Sequence record: PV806175.1
Length of the DNA: 64,000 nucleotides
Direction: 5' to 3' (one strand)
Source: Escherichia phage CCU7
Shown here: positions 3,186-3,292 of the stretch, piece after piece
Numbering within the stretch: the first letter of the stretch is position 1
How the letters are laid out: every line of letters starts with the position of its first letter
Translations under genes and position numbers: made by a program
The notes under the pieces: generated by a model
What the model saw: the letters and a program-made list of their open reading frames with translations, nothing else
What the model was told of the DNA's origin: nothing
Database searches by the model: none

Positions 3186-3208
3186 GGGAGACTTCGGTCT
3201 CCCTTTTG
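3186..3208 (+). terminator. rho-independent terminator after gene 32 (UUCG-loop hairpin)
   Basis: gggagacttcggtctccc + ttttg. Confidence 0.7.
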
Positions 3209-3234
3209 AGTATCTGTAAATTACCGAAAAAGTT

Positions 3235-3263
3235 GTTTACTTCTTCCCTGGATGTGTTAGTAT
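3235..3263 (+). promoter_or_regulatory. T4-type early promoter (GTTTAC -35, TGtTAGTAT extended -10)
   Basis: gtttac-17nt-tagtat read directly; 30 nt upstream of ORF 3293. Confidence 0.6.
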
Positions 3264-3292
3264 AGACTTATCAACAACATGAGGAAATCAAA

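Follow-up and report, generated by a model that had tools for sequence, protein, structure and literature searches.

The closest described relatives of the locus analyzed here are the promoter-early stem-loop (PeSL) cassettes of T4-type phages (Arbiol et al. 2010, PMC2839356; Comeau et al. [quoted passage not shown] PeSLs exist in many dispersed copies; the ORFs beside them vary among close relatives, and crossovers fall either near the A-rich tract or between the -10 box and the SD/ATG, where they were mapped in the published work (PMC2839356). The early promoters of these phages have been described in their own right: those of T4 combine UP, -35, TGn, and -10 elements with additional consensus positions (Hinton 2010, PMC2988021), an A-rich UP element occurs at -40 to -44 in T4-like early promoters, and 57 RB69 early promoters of this consensus have been predicted, along with terminators conserved downstream of genes 32 and 23 (Nolan et al. 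2006, PMC1524935).

The window, a 64,000-nt stretch of the genome of Escherichia phage CCU7 (PV806175.1), comes, by sequence comparison, from a Mosigvirus, an RB69-like T4-type coliphage approximately 96% identical to phage APCEc01. The ~4-kb stretch around positions 3186-3292 is 96% identical to the Mosigvirus phages JK45 and APCEc01, and the window is colinear with APCEc01 over 50 kb, the Hoc gene excepted. Gene 32, which encodes the single-stranded DNA-binding protein, ends at 3179, and a homolog of frd.2 (3293-3685, + strand) starts at 3293; positions 3186-3292 take up the whole of this gap as its regulatory sequence and are predicted to drive the frd.2 homolog. The + strand is the early-transcribed strand of window positions 1-26000. 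The initial annotation had proposed that this locus is one of several PeSL-like cassettes re-used upstream of unrelated early genes, and the coordinates that it gave for five copies all hold on re-reading the sequence.

Inspection of the gap reveals an ordered series of putative control elements, all on the + strand. Following gene 32 is a predicted intrinsic terminator for that gene (3186-3207), in which the hairpin GGGAGAC-UUCG-GUCUCCC is followed by TTTT. An A-rich, UP-like tract, CGAAAAAGTT (3224-3234), of a kind present in all of the cassettes, stands immediately 5' of the -35 box and leads into an early promoter core (3235-3263) made up of the -35 sequence GTTTAC (3235-3240), a 17-nt spacer, a TGn element (3255-3257), and the -10 sequence TAGTAT (3258-3263). 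Transcription is predicted to begin at 3270, an A located 7 nt past the -10 box, because the T4 annotation of the orthologous cd.3|cd.2 promoter fixes the start position: its name, 'Pe133295', puts the start 36 nt downstream of the first base of GTTTAC. The promoter strength, start site, and termination that we ascribe to CCU7 are drawn from the consensus together with this T4 annotation. The predicted 23-nt 5' UTR, AUCAACAACAUGAGGAAAUCAAA (3270-3292), bears the SD sequence GAGGA at 3281-3285 and is unstructured (z = +2.08). A small upstream ORF beginning at the leader ATG at 3279 was considered and rejected, as its frame is not that of frd.2 and it lacks an SD sequence of its own; in RB69, a TGA in the motif corresponding to this ATG is the stop codon of ORF245c. 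A search of the whole window against Rfam matched no family, and the leader is therefore not a known riboswitch or RNA element.

A census of the window that combined a relaxed promoter pattern with inspection of every early intergenic gap of at least 25 nt yielded 11 T4-type early promoter units, all on the + strand, at 3235, 3685, 9956, 11140, 12546, 14670, 18222, 18666, 19751, 25577, and 41495. These dispersed PeSL-like copies extend over roughly 60-100 bp and are conserved in blocks. The underlying sequences are strongly over-represented: GTTTAC-N15-19-TANTAT has 8 matches, every one on the + strand, against 0.51 expected and 0 in 100 shuffles; the leader 19-mer TATCAACAACATGAGGAAA is found at 3269, 11176 (with 2 mismatches), and 25612, or 3 copies against 0.05 expected, with weaker versions at 14670, 18666, and 41495; and the 18-nt hairpin GGGAGACTTCGGTCTCCC has 4 copies, at 3186-3203 and 18168-18185 on the + strand and at 41835 and 61185 on the - strand, against 0.01 expected. 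A generic scan for sigma70 promoters and terminators returned 75 promoter-like sites where 65 were expected and did not single out these units, so that the T4-specific promoter pattern is the only informative one, the generic scan being non-discriminating.

[quoted passage not shown] The upstream ORF ends in A-rich sequence, typically AAAAAG-TAG, such that the encoded proteins finish in Lys-Lys, and its stop codon, TAG or TAA, directly adjoins or overlaps the G of GTTTAC. The distal half of the spacer carries GGAtGTGn, including the extended -10 TGn, and is succeeded by TAnnAT. With a UP-like A-tract, GTTTAC at -36 to -31, TGn, and a -10 box having T-12, A-11, and T-7, the units contain what is predicted to be an active sigma70-like early promoter of the form GTTTAC-N17-19-TAnnAT. 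The T4 and RB69 early promoters have the same A-tract, the same GTTTAC at -36 to -31, a GT-rich/TGn segment, TAnnAT, and a C-rich stretch at -3 to -1, and they too lie 5' of early genes and novel ORFs; for the window's post-32, frd.2|frd.1, alc, cd.3|cd.2, 30.8, 30.7, and alt.-3 units, T4 has a counterpart at the same junction. The published logos end near the start site, whereas the window's units add a common 5' UTR (AUCAACAAC plus a strong SD) and embedded stems.

The predicted leaders are 20-40 nt long, unstructured, and often contain ATCAACAAC. Nine 5' ends, each comprising the UTR and 30 nt of coding sequence, were folded, and every one is less stable than its dinucleotide shuffles (z from +0.2 to +2.2), which fits selection for open ribosome-loading sites. 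GAGGA or GGAG lies 5-9 nt 5' of the ATG in 9 of the 11 units, the frd.2|frd.1 and orf090|orf091 units being weaker. Strong ribosome sites that have no promoter (orf4001, orf090, and nrdA) use the same SD, TGAGGAAA, indicating that, in its SD half, the cassette follows the ribosome-site consensus general to this phage. The exact ATCAAC..GAGGA leader occurs at Mosigvirus loci and in JS98 (at gene 43|imm, for example; the JS98 region compared is a paralogous cassette and not a syntenic one, and it entered the motif census only); it is absent from the syntenic 50 kb of T4, where the related forms ATCAAAAC and ACCAAAAC occur.

With regard to stem-loops, the units at 3235 and 18222 have an upstream terminator hairpin and neither has an internal stem, while five units that have no upstream terminator contain internal stems of 10, 8, 7, 6, and 9 bp, four of them with shuffle P <= 0.02. 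The 10-bp stem, GATAGGGCTA/TAGCCCTATC (P < 0.002 against shuffles), surrounds the -10 box of the frd.2|frd.1 cassette (3685-3749, GTGTAC-N18-TATAGT), whose -35 box is overlapped by the upstream TAG stop. An 8-bp stem, TACCACAA/TTGTGGTA, lies within the spacer of the denA|rnlA cassette (9956-10012), as does a 7-bp stem in the rnlA|alc cassette (11140-11199), which has the leader TATCAACAACACGAGGAGA. The 6-bp stem (P = 0.044) belongs to the cassette between pseT.1 and an ORF231-like gene (12546-12603), and a 9-bp stem encloses the -10 box of the 30.8|30.7 cassette (18666-18735), a unit 89% identical to its T4 ortholog. In the cd.3|cd.2 cassette (14670-14727), the ortholog of the T4 early promoter Pe133295, a 9-bp stem with one G-T pair, GGTGGAGTT/AACTCTACC, can be read by eye around the -10 box; the scan gave 5 bp and P = 0.21. 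In a further three units, the scan found stems of only 4-5 bp, not above chance relative to shuffles. The stem positions fall within the subclasses of Arbiol et al. 2010. The initial annotation had mentioned only the upstream terminator hairpins; the internal stems are additional to these.

Since the right arm of each internal stem reaches to about +1, formation of the stem is confined to DNA and to RNA read through from upstream. Comparison of the frd.2|frd.1 stem among relatives traces a path from GC through GU to AU pairing, with GGGC/GCCC in the window, GGGC/GUCC in phage ATK47, and GGAC/GUCC in FP43; in the T4-type copy and in a second FP43 copy, the register of the stem is shifted by 5 nt. 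Across 9 sequences in two registers, 81% and 69% of cells are paired, as compared with 25-49% when the partner columns are slid. Compensated pairs in the stem that brackets the -10 box number only 1-3 among the 9 sequences, and the covariation of this stem thus lends it weak support.

Four units remain. The 30.9|30.8 gap holds a second hairpin-plus-promoter composite (18168-18292), with the hairpin at 18168-18185, GTTTAC at 18222, and the ATG at 18293; the orf090|orf091 cassette (19751-19805) has a 19-nt spacer and TATAAT; the alt|alt.-3 cassette (25577-25635) has a leader identical to that at 3270; and the cassette at 41495-41554 lies between late genes 24 and 23, where it is predicted to drive an ORF at 41555-41824.

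Every sequence-level feature of the published PeSLs (PMC2839356, PMC4122927) is matched in these units, as the initial annotation had supposed, and on these grounds they are a known kind of element, a real and over-represented T4-type early promoter in PeSL format. What is new is the extension of the PeSL concept to the RB69-like genus; the PeSL papers that we found treat RB49/phi1, T4/PST, and KVP40/nt-1 and do not describe it for this genus, for which the promoter predictions already existed. There are differences as well. The window's units use GTTTAC as the -35 sequence, their stems are not of the RB49 G-run/C-run type, and most copies stand between conserved early genes rather than in hyperplastic regions. 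Published PeSLs are further characterized by mini-circles, formed when copies recombine and ORFs are excised or inserted, and by measured promoter and terminator activity; in the RB69-like phages, junction sequences consistent with such recombination are seen.

How alike are the copies? Between the -35 box and the ATG, pairwise identity among the window's copies is 0.65-0.79, and the initial description of them as near-identical was too strong. Identity is distributed unevenly, reaching 0.97 in the -35 box and 0.78 in the -10 box, 0.50 in the distal spacer, 0.48 in the SD, and 0.41 in the A-rich block (0.27 by chance), and falling to 0.30 in the proximal, -35-side spacer, which is at the chance level of 0.27. 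The likeness is nonetheless not limited to the hexamers and the SD, since the copies also have in common the distal spacer with its TGn, the context of the start site, and the ATCAACAA leader; tgtgnTACTATAGACTT is shared, as noted before, by those at 3235, 18222, and 41495. Orthologs in RB69 are 95-100% identical to the window's units, apart from the post-32 unit (80%) and frd.2|frd.1 (75%, a low value that arises because the RB69 fragment extracted was shorter), and the T4 orthologs reach 70-89%. Together, the chance-level proximal spacer and the 65-79% identity imply that most of the similarity reflects shared function and not recent duplication.

The two hairpin-plus-promoter composites (3180-3292 and 18163-18292) agree at 91 of 113 positions (z = 9.7 against shuffles) and have GGGAGACTTCGGTCTCCC in common, bearing out the earlier remark that these copies share a terminator hairpin. 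A few comparisons look less like function alone. Bounded by flanks 90-100% identical to those of RB69, the post-32 promoter core (-22 to -9) departs from the RB69 core at ~8 of 13 positions; at 19 of 20 positions it agrees with the unit at 18222 in the window itself. The alc and alt.-3 cassettes of T4, whose flanks are unrelated, match at 53 of 54 positions from GTTTAC to GAGGA, non-consensus spacer included. The identical hairpins, the T4 alc/alt.-3 likeness, and the post-32 core offer hints of exchange between copies, and the overall resemblance appears to be mostly shared functional consensus with occasional short exchanges of sequence.

Hairpins with UUCG loops and stems of at least 5 bp number 12 in the window, against 0.7 expected. 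The hairpin GGGAGACTTCGGTCTCCC follows genes 32 and 23 in both the window and RB69, and the window has it additionally after 30.9 and between genes 8 and 9; in T4, the hairpins that follow genes 32, 30.9, and 23 each have a different sequence. The copy at 41835-41852 (- strand) is the predicted terminator of gene 23, and the late promoter motif TATAAATA comes after the copy at 61185-61202 (- strand), which lies between late genes 8 and 9. C(UUCG)G tetraloop hairpins reportedly occupy gaps between T4 genes, a finding credited to Tuerk et al. in 1988. Very stable intergenic UUCG loops are likewise seen in the window, but T4 has different stems at orthologous sites, whereas the window has one identical 18-nt hairpin at four sites.

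The gene 32-frd.2 interval itself varies among relatives. In RB69, gene 32, hairpin, promoter, and leader are followed by ORF245c, whose 3' end reads ATCAACAAATGAGGAAATCAAA-ATG(frd.2). Both in RB69 and in phiC120, ORF245c is flanked by direct repeats, ATCAACAAATGAG(A)GGAAA..AAAATG, that comprise the leader and SD and span ~24 nt in RB69, and window positions 3270-3295 align to both sides of the RB69 ORF. An alternative post-32 promoter core travels with ORF245c in these two phages; phiC120 has window-like flanks on both sides and yet the RB69-type promoter core plus ORF245c, implying an exchanged unit that begins immediately downstream of the -35 box and extends as far as the leader/SD repeat. 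As the promoter core also differs, the window is not a simple deletion of the RB69 arrangement. ATK47 has a tandem pair of diverged frd.2 alleles, with the SD/ATG repeat AAATGAGGAAATCA(A/T)AATGGAAATCGG as the junction between them. From annotation tables and direct reading of the sequences, FP43 has an extra frd.2-like ORF between two cassettes, and AlbertHofmann-type phages have an alternative frd.2 allele in which homology to the window stops ~50 nt into the coding sequence. T4 places an unrelated ORF, frd.3, in this slot, and similarity between T4 frd.3 and RB69 ORF245c is undetectable. Among 60 records, a spread sample of 153 matches, ~44 have the window's arrangement, 3 an insert of ~262 bp, and 9 the alternative allele; the survey was drawn from a phage collection, the frd.2 relatives in IMG/VR (6 loci) being too few for it. 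The sequences indicate that the slot at which the 3186-3292 cassette lies is polymorphic and that its variants have their junctions in cassette sequence, in agreement with the crossovers mapped between the -10 box and the SD/ATG in published PeSLs (PMC2839356). The best-documented crossover substrate here differs from the published ones in being the leader/SD repeat, which is partly the 3' coding end of the inserted ORF.

Four further cassettes, at 12546, 19751, 25577, and 41495, coincide with edges of blocks that differ between the window and T4. The first is the 5' edge of a 552-bp block (12540-13091, the cassette plus two ORFs) missing from T4, and the unit at 19751 forms the 3' boundary of a 662-bp block in whose place T4 has other sequence and which differs in RB69 and AlbertHofmann. 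At the alt|alt.-3 unit, T4 has alt.-1 and alt.-2 inserted after the stop codon of alt, exactly 5' of the -35 box that belongs to its alt.-3 cassette. Between genes 24 and 23, homology to T4 breaks off within the -35 box (at 41502) and picks up again at the hairpin of gene 23, the right edge of this variable slot; T4 has segD there. The claim that the cassettes serve as exchange homologies marking the boundaries of accessory ORFs is supported at 32|frd.2, where the junctions lie in cassette sequence, and mapping against indel boundaries gives clear cases at six cassettes that adjoin ORFs variable among relatives (32|frd.2, frd.2|frd.1, 12546, 19751, 25577, and 41495).

For the window as a whole, the association with variable ORFs falls short of statistical significance. 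Among 44 early junctions, 10 of which have a cassette, cassettes are present at 4 of 14 breakpoint junctions and 6 of 30 conserved ones (Fisher p = 0.70); counted by variable spots, a cassette is present at 4 of 7 within the genus (binomial p = 0.05) and at 7 of 17 overall (p = 0.07), with no significant enrichment. Many indels are cassette-free, namely those involving orf4001, a DAHP-synthase-like ORF, nrdA.1, 31.2, seg/mob homing endonucleases, and group I introns, and these differences are in part tight ORF junctions. In RB69, 13 of the 57 predicted early promoters precede novel ORFs, which make up ~20% of the genome (PMC1524935), a proportion that likewise suggests no enrichment. Six of the 11 cassettes stand at gene junctions conserved between the window phage and T4; by this comparison, these six are old residents, and the idea that the cassettes are recently mobile does not fit them.

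Small accessory ORFs with their own promoter and/or terminator, such as those at 12540-13091 and the ORF at 41555, also recall lambdoid morons and integron cassettes. Moron insertion is thought to be illegitimate and unguided by conserved flanks, and integrons use an integrase and attC sites. In the window, by contrast, the regulatory motifs themselves appear to be the homology, with no recombinase involved.

We consider the units to be early promoter/leader/ribosome-site units of PeSL type, a reading to which we assign a probability of about 0.8. At 3186-3292, the UUCG-tetraloop hairpin and T-run would stop gene 32 transcripts as an intrinsic terminator, after which a host-sigma70 early promoter, predicted to be very strong and made up of the UP-like A-tract, GTTTAC, TGn, and TAGTAT, would start transcription at 3270. 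The resulting 23-nt A/C-rich, unstructured leader would amount to little beyond the start-site context AUCAACAAC and a strong Shine-Dalgarno sequence, and a leader so short and open, with such an SD, should permit immediate ribosome loading on early transcripts. Ten further units of like design occupy other early intergenic gaps. The internal stem-loops, found in most units that have no preceding terminator, are predicted to form only in read-through RNA arriving from upstream promoters, which they most likely attenuate or process. The copies would be alike mainly because all are tuned to one RNA polymerase and one ribosome, with occasional short exchanges between copies adding to the functional likeness. 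The conserved -35/A-tract and leader/SD blocks would in turn offer 15-30 bp landing sites for recombination, through which cassette-adjacent small ORFs could be gained, lost, duplicated, and replaced; the phage's very active homologous recombination system would use these blocks, and ORF turnover would be a by-product. That the cassettes act as recombination substrates in this way seems to us somewhat better than an even bet; recombination would then be the cause of the indels beside them.

If function alone had shaped the units, each would have been selected independently without ever exchanging sequence, and their proximity to indels would be coincidental. Such convergence agrees with much of what is seen: conservation is confined to positions of known function and the proximal spacer is at chance; copies within the window resemble one another less than they do their orthologs in RB69 and, at best, in T4; 6 of 11 junctions have been kept from T4 to the window phage; breakpoint enrichment is not significant; and TGAGGAAA recurs at strong promoterless ribosome sites. 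Independent selection does not, however, readily account for two T4 cassettes that match at 53 of 54 positions through a non-consensus spacer between unrelated flanks, for four identical 18-nt hairpins in the window where T4 has three different ones at orthologous sites, for a 13-nt divergent patch in the post-32 core that lies between 90-100% identical flanks and co-segregates with ORF245c, or for indel junctions placed exactly within leader/SD repeats, and we regard it as a doubtful explanation, with about one chance in four. The opposite extreme, in which circles of ORF plus cassette are actively moved by a dedicated recombinase or by a structure-specific nuclease that recognizes the stem-loops, draws on the mini-circles detected between neighboring PeSLs in RB49 and phi1, for which a stem-loop-binding factor was speculated (PMC2839356), and on the FP43 ORF flanked by two cassettes, which is the substrate that such a process requires. 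We think it improbable: a recombinase associated with the units is absent, the sequence and register of the stems vary between copies, most units are positionally stable between genera, and the crossovers lie in differing sub-regions (3' of the -35 box, in the leader/SD, and ~50 nt inside frd.2), as expected for general homologous recombination and not for a fixed site.

The common leader invites another explanation, that ATCAACAAC..GAGGA(A/G) is the operator of a regulon under a phage post-transcriptional regulator, either a RegB/S1-type cleavage site or the site of a translational repressor. GGAG is the motif cut by T4 RegB in early mRNAs, it lies inside the SD of four cassettes (alc, 30.8, 30.7, and ORF 41555), and the leader is common to functionally unrelated early genes; yet the best-matching leaders (3270, 25613, and 14706) have GAGGAAA without GGAG. 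The SD half is the phage's general strong ribosome-site consensus, the AUCAAC half is also found upstream of gene 31 and nrdA, regions in which MotA-box-like sequences can be read by eye, as fits a start-site context, and the leaders are unstructured, no RNA family having been matched in the window. An operator function strikes us as unlikely.

A more speculative extension, which we put at well under even odds, is that, in each T4-type phage genome, the regulatory cassettes undergo concerted evolution by frequent short-patch gene conversion, and that genes are gained and lost mainly through crossovers in the 20-25 nt block of leader and SD and not in the promoter or hairpin. Its basis is the four identical hairpins, the T4 alc/alt.-3 promoters, and the swapped post-32 core. 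Were it true, an ORF with a 3' end mimicking the leader/SD block could be inserted or removed precisely, leaving expression of the next gene undisturbed.

The current understanding of PeSLs and early promoters is left unchanged by these results; their most useful additions are the hints of within-genome conversion between copies and the 32-frd.2 haplotype series, a natural series in which the position downstream of one cassette is empty or holds ORF245c, a tandem frd.2 allele, or the unrelated frd.3. Through regulatory homologies of 15-30 bp, T4-type phages may add or drop small early genes while the expression of neighboring genes goes undisturbed. The units could be of use in annotating early transcription units, in predicting the sites of variable accessory genes, which are often anti-defence genes, and in choosing safe insertion sites for engineering.

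Elsewhere in the window, folding of the 263-nt rIII|30.9 gap, where there is a weak promoter-like site, gave no sign of a small RNA (z = -0.33). An intragenic candidate lies at 38643 and is not counted among the 11 units.

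Inspection of the boundary between the early cassettes and the genes that precede them revealed that the same bases form the 3' end of the upstream gene and both the UP-like A-tract and the -35 box, in the form AAAAAG-TAG-TTTAC, at window positions 3677-3690, 9948-9961, 12538-12551, 19743-19756 and 25569-25582. In 5 of the 11 units, the G of GTTTAC is shared with the TAG stop codon, and several upstream proteins therefore carry a Lys-Lys C-terminus as a consequence of this dual coding. In phage T4 (AF158101), the early promoter cassettes of alc (35284-35337) and alt.-3 (22041-22094), both on the minus strand, are identical at 53 of 54 positions from GTTTAC through GAGGA. 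This identity extends to the non-consensus spacer, and the flanks of the two cassettes are unrelated; the pair looks like the product of a recent copying or conversion event within T4.

One identical hairpin, GGGAGAC-UUCG-GUCUCCC, occurs at four sites in the window: after gene 32 (3186-3203) and after 30.9 (18168-18185) on the plus strand, and after gene 23 (41835-41852) and between genes 8 and 9 (61185-61202) on the minus strand. In T4, by contrast, the orthologous sites carry three different hairpins. In all, 12 UUCG-loop hairpins with a stem of 5 bp or longer occur in the window, as compared to approximately 0.7 in shuffled sequences. Immediately after the hairpin that separates the late genes 8 and 9 comes TATAAATA, which is the late-promoter motif of T4, such that this segment (61160-61203, minus strand) is a predicted composite of terminator and late promoter, a counterpart of the early units of the window.

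Between frd.1 and frd, a small ORF (window 4001-4249) is missing in RB69, and other sequences of 243-339 nt occupy its place in ATK47, FP43 and AlbertHofmann. This site is a variable slot at which the ORFs adjoin tightly and no cassette is present. ATK47 (NC_055708) also carries an unannotated ORF (1142-1503), a second, diverged frd.2 allele that precedes the annotated frd.2 in a tandem arrangement. Between cd.2 and cd, a 330-aa ORF (window 15085-16077), to which the records of relatives assign the name phospho-2-dehydro-3-deoxyheptonate aldolase (DAHP synthase), is missing in RB69; T4 has cd.1 in the same place.

At 17798, within the 263-nt non-coding gap between rIII and 30.9 (window 17720-17982), the sequence GTGTAC-N17-TACTAT forms a weak early-promoter-like site; no unusual structure was found in the predicted RNA of this gap (z = -0.33). 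In ATK47, an 'ori type 2 repeat' is annotated a short distance upstream of 30.9. A perfect GTTTAC-N18-TACTAT, followed by a CCGAG-ACAG-CTCGG hairpin, lies within the 24.3-like ORF (window 38643-38672), and may drive early transcription of 24.2 and rnlB from within that ORF. The regions upstream of gene 31 (16957-17013) and nrdA (5943-6029) look like middle promoters, because they contain MotA-box-like sequences (TGCTTTA and CGCTTCA) together with a -10 box; their start-site context, ATC..CAAC, is also that of the early units.
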